Positions 6,931-21,403 are shown, counted from the stretch's first letter. The stretch: DNA of 32,000 nucleotides from Thiotrichaceae bacterium (GCA_965224605.1 CBDCZP010000005.1:206069-238068); one strand, 5' to 3'. Numbers and translations: made by a program. The notes: a model not told the origin generated them from the sequence alone.

Positions 6931-9213
6931 CTACGAAATAGCTTCAGTTTCCTTGTCGAAGTTAAGCTTTAGCTTATCTTTAACCACAGTCACTCTGACT
7001 GTACCACCATGACTCAATGCACCAAACAGAATTTCATCGGCCAAAGGTCGCTTGATATTCTCCTGTACCACTCTAGCCATGGGTCTCGCACCCATAATGG
7101 GGTCATAGCCTTTTTTCGCTAACCAACGCTTGGCTTTGTCATCAACAATGATAGTCACTTTCTTGTCTTCTAACTGTGTTTCCAGTTGAATCAGGAATTT
7201 ATCAACGACATGTTCAATAACATTTTTATCCAGTGGGTTAAACTGAATAACTGCATCTAGACGATTCCTAAATTCTGGTGAAAATGCTTTTTCTACTGCT
7301 TTACCTGAATCCAGACTATGGTTCTGTTCAGTAAAACCAATAGATGCACGGCTCATGTTTTCAGCACCGGCATTACTGGTCATCACCAGAATCACATTGC
7401 GGAAATCTACTTTACGGCCATTACTATCCGTTAAAGTGCCATTGTCCATTACTTGTAACAGAATATTAAAGACATCAGGGTGAGCCTTTTCGATTTCATC
7501 CAGTAATAGCACCGCATGAGGATTTTTGATCACAGCTTCCGTTAACAAACCACCTTGCTCATATCCAACATACCCGGGAGGTGCTCCGATCAAACGTGAA
7601 ACCGTATGACGTTCCATATACTCAGACATATCTAAACGTATCAGCTCAATGCCTAAATGTTCTGCCAGCTGCTTGGTTACTTCTGTTTTACCGACACCTG
7701 TAGGGCCTGCGAACAAGAAGGAACCTATGGTTTTGTTATCTTCACGCAAACCAGATCGTGACATTTTGATAGCTGTAACCAACTGATCAATCGCTTTGTC
7801 CTGACCAAAGACAACCCGCTTAAGGTTGTCATCCAGACGTTGTAGAACAGCCATATCAGATGAAGACACAGTCTTGGGAGGAATACGTGCAATCTTTGCA
7901 ACAATCGCTTCAATGTCTTTAACAGAAATGGTTTTCTTACGTGTTGAGCCTGATTGCAGTTGTCGATTCGCCCCTGCCTCGTCAATCACATCAATCGCCT
8001 TGTCGGGCAAATGCCTATCAGTGATATATCGTGCCGACAATTCGGCAGCTGTTTTCAGCGCAGGATTGGTATATTTAACTTTATGATGAGTCTCGTAACG
8101 ACTTTTTAGTCCTTGCAGTATTTTAATGGTGTCGGCAACCGTAGGCTCGACAATATCAATTTTCTGGAAACGACGCGCCAAAGCACGGTCTTTCTCAAAT
8201 ATACCGTGGTATTCCTGATAAGTAGTAGAGCCGATACATTTCAGCTCTCCATTGGCTAATACCGGTTTGATGAGATTCGAGGCATCCATTGTGCCGCCCG
8301 ATGTTGCCCCTGCACCTATGATGATATGGATTTCGTCGATGAATAATACGGCGTGTTCTTCTTGTTTAATTTGGTTCAGCACCGCTTTCAGACGTTTTTC
8401 AAAATCACCCCTGTATTTTGTTCCGGCGACTAAAGCACCTAAATCCAATGAATATAAAACCGCACTTGAGAGCACCTCTGGAACTTGTCCATCAACAATC
8501 CGCTTGGCCAAACCTTCGGCTATCGCTGTCTTACCTACACCGGCCTCACCGACTAGCAATGGATTGTTTTTGCGTCTACGGCAAAGTACTTGCACCGTGC
8601 GTTCTACTTCTTGATCCCGACCAATCAGAGGGTCTATTTTTCCTTCACGAGCACGTTGATTCAGATTGGTAGCAAATTGATCCAAAGCATTTTCACTGGG
8701 TTCTCCATTCTCTGAATCAGCCGGTTCCAAACTGGGATCAGTATCTTCACCCAACAGATCGGTCAATGTGGGTTCATCTTCATATTTATGCACACCGTGA
8801 GAAACATAGTTCACCAAATCCAGGCGAGACATATTTTGCTTATTTAAATAGTAAACGGCATGTGATTCCGGTTCGCCGAAAATAGCGATAAGAATATTTT
8901 CTCCAGACACTTCTTCTTTTCCAGAAGCCTGAACATGGTAAACCGCTCGTTGAATAACTCTTTGAAAGCCTAATGTCGGTTGGGTTTCTCGTTCATCCTC
9001 ACCAAATAGGACAGGCGTGCTATCTTCAATAAAACCATCCAGTTCTGTTTGCAATACGGGGATGTCTACACCACATGCACGCAATGCATCAGCTGCATTG
9101 GGGTTGTTCGTCATGGCAAACAACAAATGTTCAACTGTTACGAACTCATGGCGTTTTTCGCGCGCATCACGAAATAGCGTATTAATAGAATATTCGACTT
9201 CTGTGCTAAGCAT
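6931..9213 (-). CDS. clpA: ATP-dependent Clp protease ATP-binding subunit ClpA
   Basis: The 760-aa ORF has a Clp N-domain and two AAA+ modules, with Walker A motifs 'GEAGVGKTAIAEG' and 'GPTGVGKTEVTKQ'. Walker B motifs are 'LFIDEIH' and 'LLLDEIEKAH'. It has no middle (M) domain, so it is ClpA rather than ClpB, and it sits downstream of clpS. Confidence 0.95.
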   Translation of the reverse strand: MLSTEVEYSINTLFRDAREKRHEFVTVEHLLFAMTNNPNAADALRACGVDIPVLQTELDGFIEDSTPVLFGEDERETQPTLGFQRVIQRAVYHVQASGKEEVSGENILIAIFGEPESHAVYYLNKQNMSRLDLVNYVSHGVHKYEDEPTLTDLLGEDTDPSLEPADSENGEPSENALDQFATNLNQRAREGKIDPLIGRDQEVERTVQVLCRRRKNNPLLVGEAGVGKTAIAEGLAKRIVDGQVPEVLSSAVLYSLDLGALVAGTKYRGDFEKRLKAVLNQIKQEEHAVLFIDEIHIIIGAGATSGGTMDASNLIKPVLANGELKCIGSTTYQEYHGIFEKDRALARRFQKIDIVEPTVADTIKILQGLKSRYETHHKVKYTNPALKTAAELSARYITDRHLPDKAIDVIDEAGANRQLQSGSTRKKTISVKDIEAIVAKIARIPPKTVSSSDMAVLQRLDDNLKRVVFGQDKAIDQLVTAIKMSRSGLREDNKTIGSFLFAGPTGVGKTEVTKQLAEHLGIELIRLDMSEYMERHTVSRLIGAPPGYVGYEQGGLLTEAVIKNPHAVLLLDEIEKAHPDVFNILLQVMDNGTLTDSNGRKVDFRNVILVMTSNAGAENMSRASIGFTEQNHSLDSGKAVEKAFSPEFRNRLDAVIQFNPLDKNVIEHVVDKFLIQLETQLEDKKVTIIVDDKAKRWLAKKGYDPIMGARPMARVVQENIKRPLADEILFGALSHGGTVRVTVVKDKLKLNFDKETEAIS

Positions 9214-9392
9214 GATTACTCCCTTGTTATATTTCCAAGTTCTTTAAAGAACTCAATAAAGCCAAGCTACTTCCTTTTCAGGAAATAAAAGCCCATCTAA
9301 ATTTGAGTCTCTTAAGCACTCTCTGTACCCTCACAACGACTAAAATTGTCGTGAAAACTAACTGACTGCTACTCTCTAACTAATAGCATAGG

Positions 9393-9713
9393 TTAGTTTT
9401 CCTCCATTGTGCATAACAGCGGATGTTCATTCTCTCTGGCGAATTGATTCACCTGAGCGACCTTTGTCTCTGCTATATCTCTAGTATAGACCCCACAAAC
9501 ACCTTTGCCTTTAGTATGTACACTTAGCATGATGCGTGTGGATCTTTCTTGGTCTAAACCGAAGAACAATCTTAGTACTTCTACGACAAACTCCATTGGA
9601 GTGAAGTCATCGTTAAGAAGTATAACTTTGAAAAGCTTCGGTTCCTTTACATCAGGACGGGATTCTTCAACCGCTAATCCTGAATCATTCTGATGGTCGG
9701 TATCATCAGCCAT
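9393..9713 (-). CDS. clpS: ATP-dependent Clp protease adaptor ClpS
   Basis: The 106-aa ORF contains '[23 protein letters not shown]' and '[28 protein letters not shown]', the typical ClpS core. It is in the conserved clpS-clpA arrangement. Confidence 0.93.
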
Positions 9714-11280: not shown

Positions 11281-11940
11281 ATGATCAAGACTAGCGAAAA
11301 AAACACTGCTCTTTATTATATTCATGACCCCATGTGCAGTTGGTGCTGGGGTTTCCGACCGACCTGGTTGCAGGTTCTGGAAAAACTACCCAAATCTATC
11401 AGTGTCATTTCATTATTGGGTGGGCTTGCACCTGATTCGGATCAGCCAATGCCTGCCAACATGCAGATAAAGATACGTGACATATGGAGAAGCATTCAAC
11501 AACACATTCCCGGAACTCGTTTCAATGAAGATTTTTGGGAGAAATGCCAACCTCGCCGTTCAACTTATCCTGCTTGTCGTGCTGTAATCGCAGCCCGAAA
11601 TCAACATGCTTCGTGTGAACACGCCATGATTTTAGCTATCCAGGAAGCCTATTACCTCAAGGCGCGCAATCCATCCGATATTGATGTATTGATTGATCTT
11701 GCCAATACTTTATCTCTAGCCACTAATGCCCCTTTTGATATAGATAAATTTGTATTTGATCTGTCGCATGAAGAAACACAACAGCAACTCATGCATGAGA
11801 TAGACCTCGGAAAGACCATGGGAGCCACAGGATTTCCCAGCCTTATTCTGGAAGATAAAAAAACTTATTCATTGCTTGATATTGACTACAATAATCCACA
11901 CAAAATTTTAAAGCAGATAACAACTCTTTCAGCCGATTGA
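11281..11940 (+). CDS. DsbA-family thioredoxin-fold protein (CxxC)
   Basis: The 219-aa ORF has an SD-like 'aaagga' upstream. The active-site-like motif 'DPMCSWCWGF' is at the N-terminus and 'GATGFPSLIL' (cis-Pro loop region) near the C-terminus. It has no signal peptide, so it is probably cytoplasmic. It ends 14 nt before the next gene. Confidence 0.75.
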   Translation: MIKTSEKNTALYYIHDPMCSWCWGFRPTWLQVLEKLPKSISVISLLGGLAPDSDQPMPANMQIKIRDIWRSIQQHIPGTRFNEDFWEKCQPRRSTYPACRAVIAARNQHASCEHAMILAIQEAYYLKARNPSDIDVLIDLANTLSLATNAPFDIDKFVFDLSHEETQQQLMHEIDLGKTMGATGFPSLILEDKKTYSLLDIDYNNPHKILKQITTLSAD

Positions 11941-11954
11941 AAAGGTGAGCTAGT

Positions 11955-14354
11955 ATGAAAAAAACATCAGTACACCCTTGGTTCCCAGTGTTTCTAGCGA
12001 TAGCCATACTTGCTCTTATTTTGTTATCTGTAGGTTTTTCCCAGCAATATAAATTGGCATTGGGTCAGTCAGTTTATGCAGCTGTTAATCTACTCGTTCA
12101 TGGAAATGAACTGAAACCCGACGATATAGAACACCGTTCAGAGCTAATGATCGCAGGGCAAATTCTTGGCTTTATCGCCATTTATGGCTTCATATTGCAT
12201 ATAGCATGGATTTTCTTGGGTGAAGGTTTACGTAATATATGGATTCAATGGTTTTATAAAAACCACATCATAGTCTGTGACTTGAATCCACAAGGCCAGG
12301 CCTTTATATCCAATCTACGCAACAGTCCTACAAAAGAAAAAATCGTTGTTTTACTGGAAAATGTTGAGAATGAACATGAATCTTTTTGCACACAACACAA
12401 TGCAAAACTTATCCAGGGTAATCCTCGCTTAGTCAATAAACTACATGCCGTTGCCGTGCAACGTGCGAAAGTATTAATTGTTTGTAGTGATAGCTACGAT
12501 ACCAATTTACAAATTGCTCAGGCGGCAGAGAAGAACTTATATAAACGTTCAAAAAGTGTCAGGCCACTAAATTTATACTTGTCGTTAAGCGATTCATTAG
12601 TAATAGATGGAATAGGCAATGAAAATTACAGCCACTTTCTACAACCGGGAGAAAAACTTAATCCTTATGTTTATTCTGCTGAAAACCTGATTGCCCGACA
12701 TTACTTTAATCAATACCCATCTCACACTTGGGCAGATTGGCAGGGTCAAAAACAAGTTCATTTGGTCTTTGCGGGGTTTGGAGCATTAGTAGAATCGCTC
12801 ATCTGTCAATATGCACAGATTTCACCGTATAAAGATTTTCTCCCACCTGTTTTTACATTAGTTGACCCTGAAGCAAAAAAGAAGTGTGCATTATTGATTT
12901 CCCGCTATCCCGCACTTGAAAATGGTAGAGAAAATGAGCATCAAATGATTGGAGGCTTGCATGCTATAGAGTGCCATCAAAGCTTTAAATTAAGTGATGC
13001 TCAACTGCATGAAGTGGCGACAGTCGATGGAGTTACCATACCACCCACGGCCGTCTTGTTCGCTACTCCAGATAATGCATTAAATTTTCAACACGCAGTG
13101 AGTCTTCATCAACAAACCCTACGTTTTAATCGATGGCGTGTACCGTTCTATTCATTTCTTTGTCAGGACATAGGCATACAAGCTTTATTGTCTTCTGCAA
13201 AAAGCAAACATCCAGGGGATCAACTTATTCCTTTTGGTATGGCTGAACAGGTCTTCGATCTTGATACTTTGAATGAAGTGGAATTGAATGCCTGTCTGGT
13301 GCATGAAGCTTATAAAAAGGATCAGATAGAGAAGGGCAATAATAAAGTGCCATCATGGGCATTACTACCTGAAACATATCGTGCGGCAAATCGTCGTGCC
13401 GGAGATCATATTGCAGTAAAGCTCGCTAGCTTGGGCTGCCATATTGAAGCAGGCAAGCCTCTCGTATTAGATGACGCCAGTATATTTGATATTGCCGAAG
13501 AACGATGTGCGGACCTAAGCAAACTAGAGCATCGTTCATGGCGATATGAACGATTACTCAATGGTTGGAGGTTTGGGACTGAGAGAAATGATCGGCGACG
13601 TATACATCCTTCTATTTCATTGTGGGAAGGCCTGTCAGAGGAAGAGCAACAAAAAGACGTCAATCAAATTAAGAACGTAAGAGAAGCACTCAAGCTATCA
13701 CAAAAAGATCATATTGAATCAGACACCGGGTGTTGTGGGCAGAATAATCAGCACACACCAAAACAGAAAATTCCTTTAACGGTTAGAAAAGAAGTGGTAA
13801 TAGGACTTATCGGCCATAATCACCTTACTGTGAATGAAGTAGCAATCGTTAAAGAAAAATTAAAACACGAAATTCATTATATAAAAAAGACATACTCACA
13901 CTATTTCATCACTCTCATTACGCCACTAGCACCAGGTAGCGATTTTCTTTTGGCTCATAATTTATTAGAAAACTTAAAAAAAGAAAAAGATTTGCCTCAT
14001 CGACTATTAATCATTCAAGCGATTACTCTGGACAAAGTCGTGTCCGATTATGAAACAAGCAAGAATGATAAAATTGAAGATGATAAAGAGTGGGGGAAAA
14101 AATTGAAAGACTTCATTGAGGAAAGTGAACAATGTGAAAGCATCATTGACTTAACCCTTGAAGGGGACACACATGAAGAAAATATTAATTCTTATCAAAG
14201 AGCTGCAGACTGGATCGTCGAACGTGCAGATGAATTAATCTCGGTTCATGACCCCTCAAGGGGAAAAGGTGGGAAAGCAGGTACTAGTGATACATTACAC
14301 AAGTGGAAACAGAAAAATTCCAACGTAGAGAGCAGAGTTATTGATATATCTTGA
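11955..14354 (+). CDS. multidomain membrane protein: 2-TM channel-like N-terminus + degenerate RCK/Rossmann-like modules + RyR-domain pair + C-terminal SLOG/LOG-like domain
   Basis: The 799-aa ORF has a good SD ('aaaggtgag') 7 nt upstream. TM helices are 'WFPVFLAIAILALILLSVGF' and 'LMIAGQILGFIAIYGFILHIAWIFL', separated by a short loop 'SVYAAVNLLVHGNE' with no K+ selectivity filter. The Rossmann-like starts are 'NHIIVCDLNPQGQ' and 'VHLVFAGFGALVESL'. See the sub-features for the RyR and SLOG motifs. Confidence 0.85.
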   Translation: MKKTSVHPWFPVFLAIAILALILLSVGFSQQYKLALGQSVYAAVNLLVHGNELKPDDIEHRSELMIAGQILGFIAIYGFILHIAWIFLGEGLRNIWIQWFYKNHIIVCDLNPQGQAFISNLRNSPTKEKIVVLLENVENEHESFCTQHNAKLIQGNPRLVNKLHAVAVQRAKVLIVCSDSYDTNLQIAQAAEKNLYKRSKSVRPLNLYLSLSDSLVIDGIGNENYSHFLQPGEKLNPYVYSAENLIARHYFNQYPSHTWADWQGQKQVHLVFAGFGALVESLICQYAQISPYKDFLPPVFTLVDPEAKKKCALLISRYPALENGRENEHQMIGGLHAIECHQSFKLSDAQLHEVATVDGVTIPPTAVLFATPDNALNFQHAVSLHQQTLRFNRWRVPFYSFLCQDIGIQALLSSAKSKHPGDQLIPFGMAEQVFDLDTLNEVELNACLVHEAYKKDQIEKGNNKVPSWALLPETYRAANRRAGDHIAVKLASLGCHIEAGKPLVLDDASIFDIAEERCADLSKLEHRSWRYERLLNGWRFGTERNDRRRIHPSISLWEGLSEEEQQKDVNQIKNVREALKLSQKDHIESDTGCCGQNNQHTPKQKIPLTVRKEVVIGLIGHNHLTVNEVAIVKEKLKHEIHYIKKTYSHYFITLITPLAPGSDFLLAHNLLENLKKEKDLPHRLLIIQAITLDKVVSDYETSKNDKIEDDKEWGKKLKDFIEESEQCESIIDLTLEGDTHEENINSYQRAADWIVERADELISVHDPSRGKGGKAGTSDTLHKWKQKNSNVESRVIDIS
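13285..13690 (+). other. RyR (ryanodine-receptor repeat, PF02026-like) domain pair within the 799-aa protein
   Basis: The second unit matches the RyR-domain consensus closely by eye: 'LEHRSWRYERLLNGWRFGTERNDRRRIHPSISLWEGLSEEEQQKDVNQI' (H..W......GW.[FY]G.......HP.L..[WY]..L.......D). The first unit is weaker: 'LVHEAYKKDQIEKG....SWALLPETYRAANRRAGDHI'. Confidence 0.65.
13791..14351 (+). other. SLOG/LOG-like Rossmannoid domain (putative nucleotide-ligand sensor) at the C-terminus of the 799-aa protein
   Basis: A beta1-loop 'VVIGLIGHNHL' is followed by 'ITPLAPGSDFLLAHNLL', resembling the G.A.G.D...A helix of DprA/YpsA/LOG-type SLOG domains. A distal Gly-rich loop 'GKGGKAGTSDTL' resembles LOG 'PGG.GT..E'. 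This is motif-level only and not verified by a profile search. Confidence 0.45.
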
Positions 14355-14766
14355 TGCCATTAACATTTTAAATATTTAAATTGAGAATGAATTATTTTTT
14401 TGCTTAAAATGCTAATCAACCGGTTTGTTTTTAATAAAAACAGGTTTTAACCTATTATTGAAATTTCTTAGTGGTTATATGCATAGTTTATACTATGCTT
14501 GATGGGGTATGGGGTATCTCAAACCTATTGGAAATGACGATTAAATCGGTTGATACTGACTAACGTAGAGCGAGAAGAGTGTCTTTTTTCGTTAAAATCA
14601 ACATTAGTATTAACTGATATTAATTAATATTGATTCGAATTGTATAGCTTATTAATTAAGCATTGATTTGTACAATTAATATTAGTATCCTAATTACACC
14701 CCCTCACGATAATAATACAGACGTTTAAAATGCTTGTATTTCAACACAACAAACCACATTTAAATT

Positions 14767-15948
14767 ATGAGTGATATATTCCTAAGCTACGCGAAAGCTG
14801 ATCGCGACGAACTACTCCCCTTGGTAAAGGCACTTGAAGACAAAGGATGGAACATATTTTGGGATCGCAAGATACCCATAGGAAAGACTTGGCACGGTGT
14901 ACTTGCAGCTGAGATTGAAGCCTGTAAATGCATGTTGGTCGTGTGGTCTAATTCATCTGTGCAATCTGAATGGGTACGTGAAGAAGCGCAAATAGGTAAA
15001 GATCGGCAAATTATTTTTCCAGTGAGCCTGGATGGCTCATTACCACCATTAGGTTTCGGTGGTATTCAATCTGCAAATCTTTCAGGTTGGCAAGGTGAAG
15101 AAAACCATCCCGAGTATCAAACATTTATTCGTGAATTGACGGACCATATGGGTTCTATCAAAGGTCAGATCAGAGTTGAGAAACCGGAATCGACTGACAG
15201 TATGAATGTGGCAAATGTAAATAACAGCAATCAATTTGTTGTGCCAGCCGCCGTTTCACCTCAGGCTCATTCTGATCCTTATACTCCAGCAACAGCCTAT
15301 GGAAACATACAATCCATTGCTCCGCAGGAGATACAAAAAACGGGAACCCTTAAAAAACTTATTCTAGGTGGAGTTGCCGCTGCATTTATAGCTGCCATTG
15401 CAACATTCGGTGTGATTCAATATAACGAAAAGGTTGCGTTGGAGTCCGCACAAAAAGAAATGGAACTTGAGCGAAAAAAAGCACAAGAAGCTCAAATATT
15501 AGCTGAAAAAATAAAAAAAGAAGAAGCTATTAAAGCAGAAGCAATAGCCTCTGCTAAAGCTGAAGTAGCGAGAGAAAATGCACGAAGGATAGCGAAAGAA
15601 GATAAAAAAAGGAAAAAATCAGCTGCAAAAGAAGCGGCTAACCTCGCCAAAAAAAGGCAACAAGCGGAAAAACAGATACTAGCTGATATCGCTCGACAAA
15701 ATGCGGCACAGAATGCAAAAATCAGAGCCGATGCAAACCTGAGAGCCAAACAACAACAAGAAGCTCAAAGATTAGCGCGTCAGCGAGCTGATGCCCAAAG
15801 GAGAGCTCAACAGCAGCAAGCACAAGCGGCAGCCAAAGCTCGACAGAAAAAACCTAGTACAAATAATTCTTCTCAAAAAAGCGATGCTTTTGCAGAAGGT
15901 GTAGGTGCAGCAGCAGCCGGGCTGATAGGTAAAAGACTCGGCTTTTAA
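14767..15948 (+). CDS. TIR-domain protein with a single TM helix and a Lys/Ala/Glu/Gln-rich (TolA-like) C-terminal region
   Basis: The N-terminal ~130 aa match bacterial TIR (TIR_2-like): 'DIFLSYAKADRD', 'GWNIFWDRKIPIGKTW', 'CMLVVWSNSSVQSEWVREEAQ' (a conserved Glu is present) and 'IIFPVSLDG'. The TM helix 'LILGGVAAAFIAAIATFGVIQY' spans nt 15358-15423. A ~140-aa low-complexity helical K/A/E/Q region (nt ~15430-15852) follows, and the protein ends in the Gly/Ala tail 'AFAEGVGAAAAGLIGKRLGF'. Confidence 0.85.
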   Translation: MSDIFLSYAKADRDELLPLVKALEDKGWNIFWDRKIPIGKTWHGVLAAEIEACKCMLVVWSNSSVQSEWVREEAQIGKDRQIIFPVSLDGSLPPLGFGGIQSANLSGWQGEENHPEYQTFIRELTDHMGSIKGQIRVEKPESTDSMNVANVNNSNQFVVPAAVSPQAHSDPYTPATAYGNIQSIAPQEIQKTGTLKKLILGGVAAAFIAAIATFGVIQYNEKVALESAQKEMELERKKAQEAQILAEKIKKEEAIKAEAIASAKAEVARENARRIAKEDKKRKKSAAKEAANLAKKRQQAEKQILADIARQNAAQNAKIRADANLRAKQQQEAQRLARQRADAQRRAQQQQAQAAAKARQKKPSTNNSSQKSDAFAEGVGAAAAGLIGKRLGF

Positions 15949-15999: not shown

Positions 16000-17343
16000 C
16001 TAAGTCCGGCTAATACGAAAGAATATGCCTGCCAGAAAAACGAATACCAGAGCATTAGCGGCCTGATGTAAATTAAAGTCTACATAACTGTGCAGTAAAA
16101 GTAGCAACATGCCAATCCCCGCACCTATTTGTAAATTATTAAACTCACCTTGTGCCTGCCCTCTGAATAAGTGGAACCAGCGAGCAAGATACAAAACAAA
16201 AAAACCAGCAATGATAATAATTCCAAACACACCCATATCCGAAATGATTTCCAAATAATCATTGTGTGCATGGTTAACAAAACTATGTTGATCAATGGGC
16301 TGATAAGCACGATATATTTCAGGAAAAGTCCCCGGGCCACTGCCCCATGGGAACATGTCTGTGATAGCACGTTGTGCATTTTCAAAAATCCGCCACCTTT
16401 CATCTTCCATGGGATCCTTGGCGAATCTATTGAGTATGGGTACTATACCTACCTTGAAAGCAATCCCTATACCAACAACACTGGCTATCATTAAAAAACC
16501 AAATGATTTAATTTTTCCGACATGATGAGCGAAGGCAAAAGATGAAAGCAACAACCCCAGCAATACCAGACCAATACCAGCTCGCGAAGCAGAGAAAAAG
16601 GAAACTAAAATCATTAATACAAGCAGTATTGTTAAGGTCAAGGAACGACTAAAGAATGAGCCACTAAAACCTCTCCTCCCCATCGAATTAGACGAGAAAG
16701 AGGCCACTAACATTCCAATAACCAATGGTAATGCTAGTTCAATTAAGCCTACGAAATGATCCCGATTTCGATAAGTACCACTTGCAGTATCCCCATGCTC
16801 AATATTACCCAGATAGAAACTATCTGTTCCTGATGCATATTGGATAATACCTAATCCCGTCTCAAAGAAGACAATCACAAAGAGCACGACAACCAAATTG
16901 CGAACATTTCTACGCGGCAAACTCATGGTAACCAAAAATAGTGCAACTAATGGAATCAGATAAAATAAAGAGCGTTTCGTGTTTTCAGGTATCAATGATA
17001 AGGATGTGTTTACGATCTCAACACCTTGAGAAGATATAAAATTTGCTACGTCCGCATAAAGCTTTCTGCCGGGCAATTCAAGCCACACGGTTTCTGGTAG
17101 TGGGACAAGAAACAATGCTACACATGCCAATGAAAAGAATATGAATAACCCATTGGCATAACCGATCTTCCCTGAGCTTCCTTGTGTCCAAAATAGCACG
17201 ATCAACATCAATATCCCTGTCATTTGAGCCGCTAATTCGAATATTTCCTTATAAGGGTTCATAAACAAGGGAGCAGAAAAAATAAGCCAGCCCGCAAGCA
17301 CCGTTAACAGCTTTGTATTTGTCATTTCAGTGCTCATTGTCAC
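16000..17343 (-). CDS. O-antigen ligase / O-antigen polymerase family (Wzy_C) membrane protein
   Basis: The 447-aa polytopic membrane protein has roughly 10-12 hydrophobic segments. A large loop carries the family motif 'HAHNDYLEIISDMGVFG'. The start is ambiguous (ATG at 17343, 17337 or 17325) and overlaps or abuts the upstream gene's stop at 17327-17329. Confidence 0.8.
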   Translation of the reverse strand: MTMSTEMTNTKLLTVLAGWLIFSAPLFMNPYKEIFELAAQMTGILMLIVLFWTQGSSGKIGYANGLFIFFSLACVALFLVPLPETVWLELPGRKLYADVANFISSQGVEIVNTSLSLIPENTKRSLFYLIPLVALFLVTMSLPRRNVRNLVVVLFVIVFFETGLGIIQYASGTDSFYLGNIEHGDTASGTYRNRDHFVGLIELALPLVIGMLVASFSSNSMGRRGFSGSFFSRSLTLTILLVLMILVSFFSASRAGIGLVLLGLLLSSFAFAHHVGKIKSFGFLMIASVVGIGIAFKVGIVPILNRFAKDPMEDERWRIFENAQRAITDMFPWGSGPGTFPEIYRAYQPIDQHSFVNHAHNDYLEIISDMGVFGIIIIAGFFVLYLARWFHLFRGQAQGEFNNLQIGAGIGMLLLLLHSYVDFNLHQAANALVFVFLAGIFFRISRT

Positions 17344-18619
17344 TCACCGTTTCTTTTGTTAGCGGTACAATATCAACCTGATCAAACCAGATGCCACCTT
17401 GAAAAAACTGCTCGTGGTGGTATTGACTCATCGCTTCTAATCGAATGATTTGTGATGTACAGCCTTGCTTGGGTACTGAAAAATCGAATGTGATTTCATG
17501 CCACTTCTCGCGTCCCTTTAAGGCTTGGCTTTCACCCAGCTGCTGTTGGTTTTCATCTGCACAATAGATTCTCCAGGCCAATCCTTGTGGATTCTTTAAG
17601 CCATCAATACGTGTTTGCATAATCAGCTGATAACGACGTCCCGGTTCCAACAATAAACGCTGCCAAACGTGTTTAAACTTAATACTTTTTCGTTTGTTAA
17701 AAACAAGGTGTAATGCTCGACTACCTTTAATACCTCGGGTTCGACCCAGAGTAATTTTAGCTGGCTTAGACTGATTGTAATTCCAGTCATAGCCACTGTC
17801 ATGACTGTCACTTTCAAACCCTCCGTCGTAAAGAGTTCCTATCTTGCTGAACTGTTGACTGCTGAGTCCCTCTATCCACACTGAATACGCAAGTTTCCAT
17901 ATCTTTGCTTGCTGTAATTTCTTCACATACGCATTACGCTCATTCTTTTCTAAAGGAACGTTGGTTTGCGATCTTTGTTGATAGAAATATTCTAATACGG
18001 GCAAACTCGCTTTATTATTTACCATATAAGTAAAAAAATCGTTCCACCAAGAAGCAGGCTTAATCGCATACGGGACTAACAAATCACGAGAATCATCAGC
18101 ATTCGCATAACTGAGCAAAATCGGAAATATGGGTTTATACAACCCGCTATGTCGTGTCAGTAAGAGATCCCATTCAGAAAGCACCTTTTCGGCATCACCT
18201 TTTTCTCCCCAATAGTTGGAAAGAGCAATATGCACGTAGGAATGGGCTGGCCATTGCTTAGGAGCGAGTGTAACCGCCTTTTCAGCATGAGCTGTTTCTT
18301 GTAGGTTTTCATAAGCAAGAATCAGGATGGACATAGCATGACCGTTAGTCGGATCAACACTCAAAGCGGCCAAAGCATAGTGTTTCGCTTGCTCAAAGTC
18401 ACTTTCATCCTTGGCGAATTCGGCAAGGTTAGTCAATGCATCATTCTCGCCAGCATTCCAGTGTAGAACTCGATGATAAACATCACTACTTGCAGAGGAA
18501 TCCAAGGCAGCCCTAGCCTGTATCTCGGCAATCTTGAAGGGGATCAAGTGATAGAGCACAAAAGCAGATATTAATATCAAACATAAACGAAATGTATTAA
18601 TGAACATTCTTTTTCGCAT
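17327..18619 (-). CDS. TPR-repeat protein with C-terminal beta-sandwich (CBM/jelly-roll-like) domain
   Basis: An N-terminal signal-anchor 'FINTFRLCLILISAFVLY' is followed by TPR-like helices (e.g. 'FEQAKHYALAALSVDPTNGHAMSILILAYENLQETAHAEKAV'). The C-terminal ~170 aa are beta-rich and begin 'YDGGFESDSHDSGYDWNY', as in carbohydrate-binding-module-like domains. The ATG at 18619 is preferred to the TTG at 18631. Confidence 0.65.
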   Translation of the reverse strand: MRKRMFINTFRLCLILISAFVLYHLIPFKIAEIQARAALDSSASSDVYHRVLHWNAGENDALTNLAEFAKDESDFEQAKHYALAALSVDPTNGHAMSILILAYENLQETAHAEKAVTLAPKQWPAHSYVHIALSNYWGEKGDAEKVLSEWDLLLTRHSGLYKPIFPILLSYANADDSRDLLVPYAIKPASWWNDFFTYMVNNKASLPVLEYFYQQRSQTNVPLEKNERNAYVKKLQQAKIWKLAYSVWIEGLSSQQFSKIGTLYDGGFESDSHDSGYDWNYNQSKPAKITLGRTRGIKGSRALHLVFNKRKSIKFKHVWQRLLLEPGRRYQLIMQTRIDGLKNPQGLAWRIYCADENQQQLGESQALKGREKWHEITFDFSVPKQGCTSQIIRLEAMSQYHHEQFFQGGIWFDQVDIVPLTKETVSDNEH

Positions 18620-18731
18620 TTTTCTTAGCAAGACTTCTTAGAGAACTTCTAGCAAAACTTCGAGCAAAACATAGTACCGTAGAGACGGTTTTACAACCCT
18701 AGAATTATATTAACCCAAGAATATAATTGAG

Positions 18732-21326: not shown

Positions 21327-21403
21327 TGGTAGGCACGCTCGGATTCGAACCGAGGACTTCCACCATGTCATGGTGGCACTCTAACCAACTGAGTTACGCG
21401 CCT
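21327..21403 (-). tRNA. tRNA-Val (anticodon GAC)
   Basis: The reverse complement folds as a cloverleaf. The acceptor is AGGCGCG/CGTGCCT (one G:U), the D arm ACTC-AGTTGGTTA-GAGT, and the anticodon arm CCACC-ATGACAT-GGTGG (GAC at positions 34-36). The variable loop is AAGTC, the T arm CTCGG-TTCGAAT-CCGAG, the discriminator A, and CCA is encoded. Confidence 0.9.

Follow-up and report, generated by a model that had tools for sequence, protein, structure and literature searches.

A TIR protein and a linked channel-like protein with RCK, RyR and SLOG domains: a candidate Thoeris-like signalling pair in a Thiotrichaceae bacterium

A 32,000-nt stretch of DNA from a Thiotrichaceae bacterium (referred to below as the window, by which the whole stretch is meant) contains, at positions 11281-15948, three open reading frames (ORFs) on the + strand, the second and third of which encode a 799-amino acid (aa) channel-like protein with RyR and SLOG domains and a 393-aa protein carrying a TIR domain. 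The reading that we favour, to which we would assign a probability of about 0.6, is that these two proteins form a two-component, Thoeris-like TIR signalling pair, in which the 799-aa protein is a channel effector gated through its RyR and SLOG domains. The evidence for this reading comes from the recurrence of TIR genes next to the channel gene in distant lineages, from the retention of the TIR catalytic Glu, and from the folds and conserved ligand residues of the 799-aa protein. An earlier note on this DNA had already delineated the three ORFs, their common strand and the gaps of 14 nt (between a DsbA-like gene and the channel gene) and 412 nt (between the channel and TIR genes), and our ORF call agrees with it in all of these respects.

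Linkage of TIR and channel genes in distant lineages

The linkage between the two genes was examined in a sample of 15 distinct loci, which are in part phylogenetically related. The genome and metagenome loci were chosen solely by means of a SLOG-domain motif and tblastn (a 21-sequence subset and a strict motif were used, with a yield of 6 + 7 loci), and the TIR calls were checked with Pfam; because selection was by the SLOG motif only, the sample is free of a bias towards TIR genes. In 11 of the 15 loci a TIR gene was found no more than one gene away from the channel gene. It is the direct neighbour of this gene in the window, L004, L003, L007, L010, L016/L021, L017, L019, L022, and L024, and is separated from it by one gene in L023 (Table 1). 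Such adjacency was observed for nine of the 11 SLOG-bearing forms and for two of the four short forms that lack this domain, one of the latter with a degenerate TIR. The channel homologues show 43-56% identity for the Thiothrix relatives and 22-29% identity for the loci from Alphaproteobacteria, Gammaproteobacteria and metagenomes, and the synteny of the two genes in other genomes, which the earlier note had named as a check upon their association, thus persists down to the latter level.

The TIR protein of the window matched the Pfam TIR_2 family with an E-value of 5.7e-21 (aa 4-112). The motif SEWVREEA corresponds to aa 67-74 of this protein and places E73 within the sequence W-V-x-x-E; the same catalytic Glu column ([WYMF]-[VL]-x-x-E) is kept in all of the 13 partner TIRs that are intact, in agreement with the earlier claim of a TIR protein with a conserved Glu. 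The kinase-fused TIRs of L010 and L014 are close kin of its TIR domain. The partner TIR proteins share only the TIR domain, and the remainder consists variously of a transmembrane (TM) helix with a coiled coil, YHS, RHS, PG_binding_1, Pkinase or NB-ARC+TPR (STAND) modules. A single TM helix is present right behind the TIR domain in eight of 12 partners, and these single-pass proteins would have a receptor-like topology, with the variable C-terminal part located outside the cytoplasm. In the window protein, the TM helix is followed by a low-complexity helix of the TolA/GltJ type, which showed a weak match to NCBIfam GltJ and whose 173 C-terminal residues (15424-15945) include 44 Ala, 25 Lys, 21 Gln, 17 Glu, and 16 Arg; as judged from its sequence, this tail would be periplasmic.

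Some of the partner genes show features of their own. In Candidatus Thiothrix anitrata (L003:1-5813) the two giant genes, of 1418 aa and at least 1113 aa, have nearly identical N-terminal parts consisting of TIR_2 and a TM helix, and no Pfam domain is given for them in the precomputed annotation. In L007 (17-493), the similarity to TIR ends after ~46 aa and the region of the catalytic Glu is lost, which suggests that the partner TIR decays where the SLOG domain is absent. In both L019 (1621-4398) and L024 (599-3334) the TIR-NB-ARC-TPR gene is adjoined by a gene for an FtsH-like AAA+Peptidase_M41 protein of ~920 aa, the ~500-aa N-terminal region of which belongs to no assigned family; this protein may be a third component of the TIR-NB-ARC-TPR variant. 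In Thiothrix, the gene for the RyR channel protein is located in a variable hotspot beside ilvD (L004, L008, L011, and L030), where its presence is patchy and where the cargo varies between Uma2, NUDIX, TIR-YHS, Patatin, SLATT_1, and TPR-S-trypsin genes.

Table 1. Features of the three-ORF stretch and organization of TIR and channel genes in other loci.
Feature or locus	Position	Strand	Details
DsbA-like CxxC thioredoxin-fold gene	11281-11940	+	219 aa; Thioredoxin_5 9.5e-13, DSBA 3.4e-7 (Pfam)
799-aa putative effector: 2TM pore-like module, tandem RCK, RyR, SLOG	11955-14354	+	ORF, AlphaFold2 model, Foldseek
Membrane module	11979-12254	+	TM1 aa 9-32, short pore-helix-like helix aa 36-49, TM2 aa 63-100 (model)
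RCK gating-ring module, two tandem Rossmann/RCK domains	12258-13253	+	RCK1 aa 102-235, RCK2 aa 236-433
RyR (R12-type) region	13260-13709	+	degenerate half-repeat aa 436-497; complete repeat aa 515-585
C-terminal SLOG domain, YpsA-like	13782-14351	+	aa 610-799; AlphaFold2 and Foldseek
AT-rich 412-bp spacer	14355-14766	.	likely carries the TIR gene's own promoter
TIR protein, 393 aa	14767-15948	+	Pfam TIR_2
TIR_2 domain	aa 1-135 of the 393-aa protein	+	catalytic Glu E73 at 14983-14985
TM helix of TIR protein	aa 199-217, 15361-15417	+	hydrophobicity
Ala/Lys/Gln/Glu-rich C-terminal tail of TIR protein	aa 220-393	+	composition
L004 (Thiothrix)			channel gene, then TIR_2+YHS
L003 (Candidatus Thiothrix anitrata)			tandem pair of giant TIR genes, divergent from channel gene
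L010 (Thiothrix)			TIR_2+Pkinase, divergent; short form without SLOG, TIR intact
L007 (Thiothrix)			truncated TIR, divergent; short form P0006
L016/L021 (Rhodospirillaceae metagenome-assembled genome)			TIR_2+RHS directly upstream, same strand
L017 (Gammaproteobacteria metagenome-assembled genome)			TIR_2+PG_binding_1 directly upstream
L019 (Gammaproteobacteria metagenome-assembled genome), L024 (metagenome contig)			TIR_2+NB-ARC+TPR, divergent
L022 (metagenome contig)			TIR_2, divergent
L023 (metagenome contig)			TIR_2 downstream, one gene in between

Domain architecture of the putative effector

The full-length AlphaFold2 model of the 799-aa protein, a monomer model built upon a 56-sequence alignment, had a predicted local distance difference test (pLDDT) score of 90.7 and a predicted template modelling (pTM) score of 0.89. 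When this model was compared with the PDB by Foldseek, the best match was GsuK (E 7.6e-10; the ADP-bound structure 4gx1), followed by MthK, the TrkA gating ring and Slo1/BK; the GsuK alignments extended over 440-527 columns and included chains of 546 residues. Pfam matches to Slo-like_RCK (1.4e-8) and TrkA_N (1.9e-6) were obtained for aa 102-195, and the hydrophobicity of the sequence indicates that aa 10-28 and 70-88 are TM helices. As modelled, the N-terminal ~440 aa resemble a channel of the GsuK type with two TM helices (2TM) and tandem RCK domains, and the fold matches thus agree with the channel-like 2-TM N-terminus that had been proposed earlier. The consensus of the pore loop in the 56-member alignment is Y(R)TLxLF. 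The GxGxxG loop of RCK1 is canonical in most relatives and degenerate in the window protein and the Thiothrix lineage, and the model shows a disordered linker at aa 586-609, ahead of the SLOG domain.

The RyR region, which forms four long helices in the model (aa 436-585), was matched by Pfam RyR (PF02026) at aa 518-575 with an E-value of 8.2e-9 and a score of 36.0 bits, the gathering cut-off being 27.4. Its sequence matches in the PDB were the R12 repeats of RyR1, RyR2, and RyR3 (up to 1.9e-13), 3nrt and 35tm. The region forms a predicted intramolecular pseudo-dimer in which the first repeat is degenerate, whereas the second repeat carries H526, W529, R544, H551, K567, and D568. The significance of these residues is indicated by two preprints of 2026 on phage proteins. 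RyDEP of phage DyoEdafos cleaves the cyclic ADP-ribose (cADPR) isomers 2'/3'cADPR by means of H75 and D117, with W78 stacking on the adenine and H100 touching the phosphates, and other phage RyR homologues act as nanomolar sponges (PMC13232231); similarly, RyR Tad binds 3'cADPR, 2'cADPR, and cADPR via H129/W132, K147, H154, and K170/D171 (10.64898/2026.06.04.730250). Counted from H526, the spacings in the window protein are those of RyDEP and RyR Tad, viz. +3 (W), +18 (basic), +25 (H), and +41/+42 (K/D). In an ungapped alignment, H526, W529, H551, and D568 fall upon chain positions 76, 79, 101, and 118 of 35tm_A, a 139-aa protein described in the PDB as 'Ryr domain-containing protein', this mapping being bridged through a Gordonia phage protein; the equivalent residues of an actinophage RyR protein fall upon the identical positions. 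DyoEdafos RyDEP itself was not among the matches in the phage collection, and the positions in 35tm_A exceed the published RyDEP numbers by one; we infer that 35tm is RyDEP and that the construct accounts for this offset. Among 56 family members, W529 and R544 are invariant (56/56 each), and H526, D568, and H551 are present in 55, 54, and 52 members, respectively. The earlier note had regarded the RyR pair as part of a membrane scaffold: its architecture of 2TM, RCK and RyR modules is borne out by these results, but a mere scaffolding role for RyR is not, in view of the conserved cADPR ligand residues, and the claim of RyR to the sensor role is no weaker than that of SLOG.

For the C-terminal domain, an AlphaFold2 model based upon a 19-protein alignment of this module (pLDDT 88.7, pTM 0.87) consists of alternating beta and alpha elements. 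In the Foldseek search of the PDB, YpsA of B. subtilis (2nx2) ranked first (E 2.8e-6, probability 1.0, TM-scores 0.64/0.67); behind it came DprA, TRPM8 and TRPM3 (matched in their N-terminal regions) and PpnN, a LOG-like nucleosidase. The top matches among the viral models of BFVD were DprA-like proteins, 'YspA cpYpsA-related SLOG' and DUF2493, and every one of these PDB and viral matches belongs to the SLOG superfamily. Residues 610-799 are thus predicted to adopt a YpsA-like SLOG fold, a fold clade that has been implicated in cADPR sensing (PMC9503650). The SLOG/LOG-type C-terminus that had been suggested from motifs is confirmed by structure prediction and Foldseek, whereas Pfam sequence models are only marginal: the region was not detected by Pfam, NCBIfam or PADLOC on the full-length protein, the Pfam YpsA model (PF06908) matched isolated C-terminal domains of two of seven members (E 0.058 at best), and a sequence-profile search of the PDB with the SLOG region gave one spurious match only. 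The SLOG motifs are GLIGHN, TPLAPGSD, and GGxGGT (GG.AGT in the window protein), of which APGSD is invariant in 19 of 19 sequences.

An exhaustive profile search with the SLOG module recovered 944 representatives at E<=1e-3, and the architecture RCK-middle-RyR-SLOG is present in ~85 of the best 150 representatives at 50% identity. Word-indexed searches had given 17 and 12 proteins and had made the family appear to be restricted to Thiothrix; this view was overturned by the profile search. In the source annotations the members of the family are described only as 'RyR domain-containing protein' or 'Kch'. The SLOG module occurs as a stand-alone protein (~217 aa), C-terminal to RCK-RyR, and N-terminal to TPR-S+cyclase, STAND NTPase or SLATT_3 modules. 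SLATT, TIR, Patatin and cyclase proteins are typical partners of SLOG domains, and the company of this module is thus of the kind expected for the superfamily. A class of ~800-aa proteins (P0111, P0120, P0126, P0132, and P0148) has an N-terminal SLOG-like module followed by TPR-S and an adenylate/guanylate cyclase; for fusions of this module to TPR-S+cyclase, STAND or SLATT_3 no description was found in the literature. In T. nivea (L013:7001-8818) and in a metagenomic contig (L014:7001-8359), the gene immediately behind a stand-alone SLOG gene encodes a Patatin phospholipase, an arrangement that represents the 'SLOG Patatin' candidate Thoeris effector in split form. The latter contig also has genes for TIR_2+Pkinase, Sel1+caspase, and autotransporter proteins; the short RyR protein in L010 is surrounded by the same set of genes.

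Proposed mechanism and alternative explanations

In the mechanism that we propose, the TIR protein would act both as sensor and as signal generator, its cytoplasmic TIR domain being connected through a single TM helix with a variable extracytoplasmic region. Upon a stimulus, the TIR domain, which is predicted to be catalytically competent, would convert NAD+ into an ADP-ribose (ADPR)-derived messenger, most likely an isomer of cADPR. The 799-aa protein would be both receptor and effector, with an RCK gating module that has been extended by RyR and YpsA-like SLOG signal-binding domains, and binding of the ligand at RyR and/or SLOG would act through the RCK ring to open the pore. Because the pore is without a K+ selectivity filter, the likely consequences would be an ion leak and membrane depolarisation, leading to growth arrest or death of the stimulated (e.g., phage-infected) cell. 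A broader version of this reading, which we advance tentatively and at somewhat less than even odds, is that of a direct bacterial pathway from TIR via a cADPR isomer to a RyR-gated channel, in which the host-encoded R12-type RyR domain, with the aid of a TRPM-like SLOG domain, would be the physiological receptor by which a GsuK-like pore is opened, and which would be a counterpart or possible evolutionary source of the animal SARM1/CD38-cADPR-RyR and ADPR-TRPM2 axes. Within that version, the TIR-NB-ARC-TPR partners would, by analogy, parallel the immunity of plants in which TNL proteins act via a small molecule upon Ca2+ channels.

Several observations weigh against the signalling-pair reading and are considered here together with the alternative explanations upon which they bear. 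The spacers between TIR and channel genes measure 105-412 bp and the two genes are divergent in six loci, i.e., they are separate transcription units, unlike the tight operons of Thoeris; because of these spacers and the frequent divergence, their sequences are indicative of a linked pair rather than a classic operon. No adjacent TIR gene is present in four loci, viz. L008, L018, L030, and L020 (in the last of which a TIR gene is 5.7 kb away); in L008 and L030, both of them short forms, the neighbouring genes are for Patatin, SLATT_1 or TPR-S-trypsin proteins, and short forms other than those next to TIR genes are found in apparent operons with Patatin and SLATT genes with no generator in view. 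Separate transcription of the two genes, these four loci, and the position of the Thiothrix loci in a variable region beside ilvD are what one would expect if the adjacency were coincidental or due to a shared integration hotspot, in the absence of any functional coupling. We regard this explanation as extremely improbable, since the adjacency recurs in Gamma- and Alphaproteobacteria (22-29% identity) where the flanking genes are unrelated, in both orientations and with TIR proteins that are not orthologous, whereas chance adjacency would amount to ~0.1-0.2% per locus if, as was assumed and not measured, a genome has a few TIR genes among several thousand genes.

A second group of difficulties concerns the identity of the sensor. 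Structures of ThsA-type SLOG domains are absent among the best 50 fold matches of the C-terminal domain. Short forms that lack SLOG are still found beside TIR genes, and others are without a generator in view, so that the assignment of the sensor role to either domain is tentative. Furthermore, the RyR domain retains the H/D dyad of the RyDEP glycosidase, and because this catalytic dyad is kept, the domain may degrade the signal instead of sensing it. SLOG would then be the sensor and RyR a built-in glycosidase for a cADPR-type signal, providing a self-limiting off-switch like the ring nucleases of type III CRISPR systems. The near-invariance of H526 and D568 would be explained by such an activity, as would the stronger TIR adjacency of the SLOG-bearing forms (9/11 as against 2/4 for the short forms), which contrasts with the universal presence of the RyR domain. 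We nevertheless think it rather unlikely that RyR is an off-switch: six of eight tested phage homologues bound signals, and beyond DyoEdafos RyDEP none of them cleaved in spite of high conservation (PMC13232231), so that conserved residues do not predict catalysis, and the SLOG-less short forms still pair with intact TIR-kinase genes (L010).

It is also conceivable that the TIR protein only depletes NAD+, and that the channel reads the fall in NAD+, or the rise in ADPR or ADP, via its RCK, RyR and SLOG domains without any dedicated messenger. The TIR-STAND partners (L019 and L024) are usually taken for NAD+-depleting NADase effectors and not for signal makers, which counts against the signalling pair and is in favour of depletion. 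The best fold match of the 799-aa protein is the ADP-bound form of GsuK, and the RCK domains of GsuK have been reported to respond to ADP and NAD+; in addition, the product ADPR remains in the RyDEP pocket (PMC13232231). Against this, the nucleotide loop of RCK1 is degenerate in the window protein, the residues of the RyR pocket are those which in phage homologues recognise cyclic ribose-ribose isomers with nanomolar affinity, and two further dedicated ligand domains would be superfluous for the sensing of bulk NAD+. Depletion without a messenger therefore appears quite improbable to us.

Lastly, the same TIR messenger and channel mechanism could serve physiological signalling concerned with the envelope or ion homeostasis rather than defence against phages, the TIR partners then sensing cell-wall or periplasmic cues. 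The genes flanking the pair in the window, clpA/clpS, pfkB and exopolysaccharide (Wzy, Wzz/GNVR) genes, are of this housekeeping kind and do not constitute a defence island, a point on which our Pfam scan of the neighbours agrees with the earlier note; the GC content of the window is not anomalous, and searches of plasmids and phages found no mobile copies of the 799-aa protein. For the TIR protein of the window, PADLOC gave only weak matches to ThsB (best 6.1e-5, with partial coverage) and PDC-S66, and for the 799-aa protein it gave no match to ThsA or any known defence protein, in keeping with the earlier view that this effector is not part of a named defence system. Channel function itself remains a prediction of the model, against which counts the fact that a G[YFL]G/TVGYG-type selectivity filter is absent from the pore loop in 56 of 56 family members. 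A physiological role would also accord with the homeostatic function of the closest structural relatives, GsuK, MthK and TrkA, and with the receptor-like, single-pass nature of eight of 12 TIR partners, some of which have PG_binding_1, YHS or TolA-like tails. However, the sensor part of the partners turns over fast and some of them are of the STAND-TPR type, the neighbours in the Thiothrix loci (Caspase-Sel1, TPR-S-trypsin, SLATT_1, Patatin, and NUDIX genes) include Caspase, trypsin-TPR-S, SLATT and Patatin genes typical of conflict systems, and the Thiothrix gene is located in the variable ilvD hotspot with a patchy presence. On balance, a purely physiological role is unlikely, although it deserves to be kept in mind.

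Comparison with known systems and neighbouring genes

The favoured reading of a TIR signalling pair with a channel effector has its closest precedent in Thoeris type I (ThsB TIR and ThsA SIR2-SLOG), which likewise combines a TIR protein with a SLOG-fold effector and in which variable TIR sensors are found with a conserved effector. It differs in that the output of ThsA is a SIR2 NADase, whereas the window effector is a 2TM/tandem-RCK channel with an extra RyR region, and in that the TIR protein of the window is of the TIR_2 type, has a TM anchor and is not part of a tight operon. The available parts of a survey of Thoeris systems (10.64898/2025.12.03.692087) describe a TIR protein with an 'ion channel' (type X, ThsK, signal unknown), a 'SLOG and 4TM' candidate, the type VII SLATT system and a 'SLOG Patatin' candidate; both of the SLOG candidates gave no defence in E. 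coli, and Avs-type TIRs were left out as NADase effectors. These membrane-effector types embody the same concept, viz. a TIR signal acting upon a membrane, channel or SLOG-fused effector, but RyR, TrkA and PF02026 are mentioned neither in the text of this survey nor in the accessible part of its supplement. The TIR of type X showed no detectable sequence similarity to that of the window, and all four inspected plasmid loci that were found via the published type X TIR sequence proved to be of type II (TIR and Macro); the window effector is set apart from ThsK by description and not by the sequence of ThsK. Hence, of the earlier proposal that the module is undescribed, the novelty of the effector architecture (tandem RCK with RyR and SLOG) stands, whereas the logic by which TIR is coupled to a membrane effector, be it SLOG-TM or a channel, is already known from the survey in the form of candidate or validated Thoeris types. 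In the accessible literature, no prior description was found of a tandem-RCK channel with RyR and SLOG domains beside a TIR_2 protein of the TM-anchored or STAND type. The pair is Thoeris-like and falls outside any named type, because in the window it is recognized neither by the PADLOC models nor by an operon or defence-island setting.

With RyDEP and RyR Tad of phages, the RyR region shares both its Pfam family (PF02026) and equivalent ligand residues (H..W, basic +18, H +25, D +42). The phage proteins are small, soluble and dimeric sponges or glycosidases that serve anti-defence, whereas the RyR domain of the window is encoded by the host, within a channel beside a TIR gene, which therefore suggests the role of a receptor rather than one in evasion. 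Host-encoded effectors with RyR domains are not mentioned in the available portions of the RyDEP preprint, the RyR Tad preprint and the Thoeris survey. Of the K+ channels, GsuK, MthK and Slo all have a 2TM pore followed by RCK domains, and GsuK resembles the 799-aa protein in having two RCK domains per chain; the latter differs from these channels in lacking a TVGYG-type filter, in possessing RyR and SLOG domains, and in its degenerate RCK1 GxGxxG loop. The two cytoplasmic domain types that occur separately in animal ryanodine receptors (R12) and in TRPM2/TRPM channels (SLOG-type MHR1/2) are united in the 799-aa protein. The animal channels have 6TM pores in place of the 2TM/RCK arrangement, the homology is domain-wise only, and Ca2+ conduction is not implied for the bacterial protein.

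If the signalling-pair reading is correct, a ligand-gated RCK channel would represent a new class of effectors for TIR signalling. The analogy suggests a resemblance of the pair to the animal cADPR-ryanodine receptor axis. A direct action of cADPR upon ryanodine receptors has long been disputed, and a small bacterial channel with an R12 pocket beside a putative cADPR-type synthase would be a tractable system in which to address gating via R12. The presence of host-encoded RyR domains beside TIR genes suggests that the native role of the RyR fold is that of a receptor for ADPR-derived signals; viral RyR-domain proteins have been described as counter-defence against Thoeris (PMC13232231; 10.64898/2026.06.04.730250). 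The diversity of the partners, from single-pass, receptor-like proteins to TIR-STAND-TPR proteins, furnishes natural material for the question of what activates bacterial TIRs.

With regard to the other genes of the window, the DsbA-like gene had been regarded as probably co-transcribed. Its membership in a CxxC family and the gap of 14 nt are confirmed, but when all fetched loci were compared a homologue was present only at the window's own locus; because it is a neighbour of the channel gene in this genome only, we have excluded it as a third component. The spacer between the channel and TIR genes contains several sigma-70-like sites and, apart from short AT-rich palindromes, no terminator, ORF >30 aa, Rfam match or strong repeat was found in it. 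In L030 the gene for the short RyR form is followed after 24 nt by a Patatin gene and this, after another 17 nt, by a SLATT_1 gene, an order that resembles an operon and near which no signal generator is seen. Directly downstream of the TIR gene of the window and on the opposite strand, an exopolysaccharide/O-antigen cluster extends from 16000-18631 (-) onward and includes genes for a Wzy_C polymerase/ligase, a TPR+CBM_4_9 protein and a Wzz/GNVR/CbiA tyrosine-kinase-like protein. The sole Rfam match in the window is a tRNA gene at 21330-21403 (-). Both the window (6931-9713) and the unrelated locus L017 (3766-6359) have clpS-clpA upstream of the TIR/channel pair, at a distance of a few genes, and this recurrence could be a coincidence or could reflect a common insertion neighbourhood.

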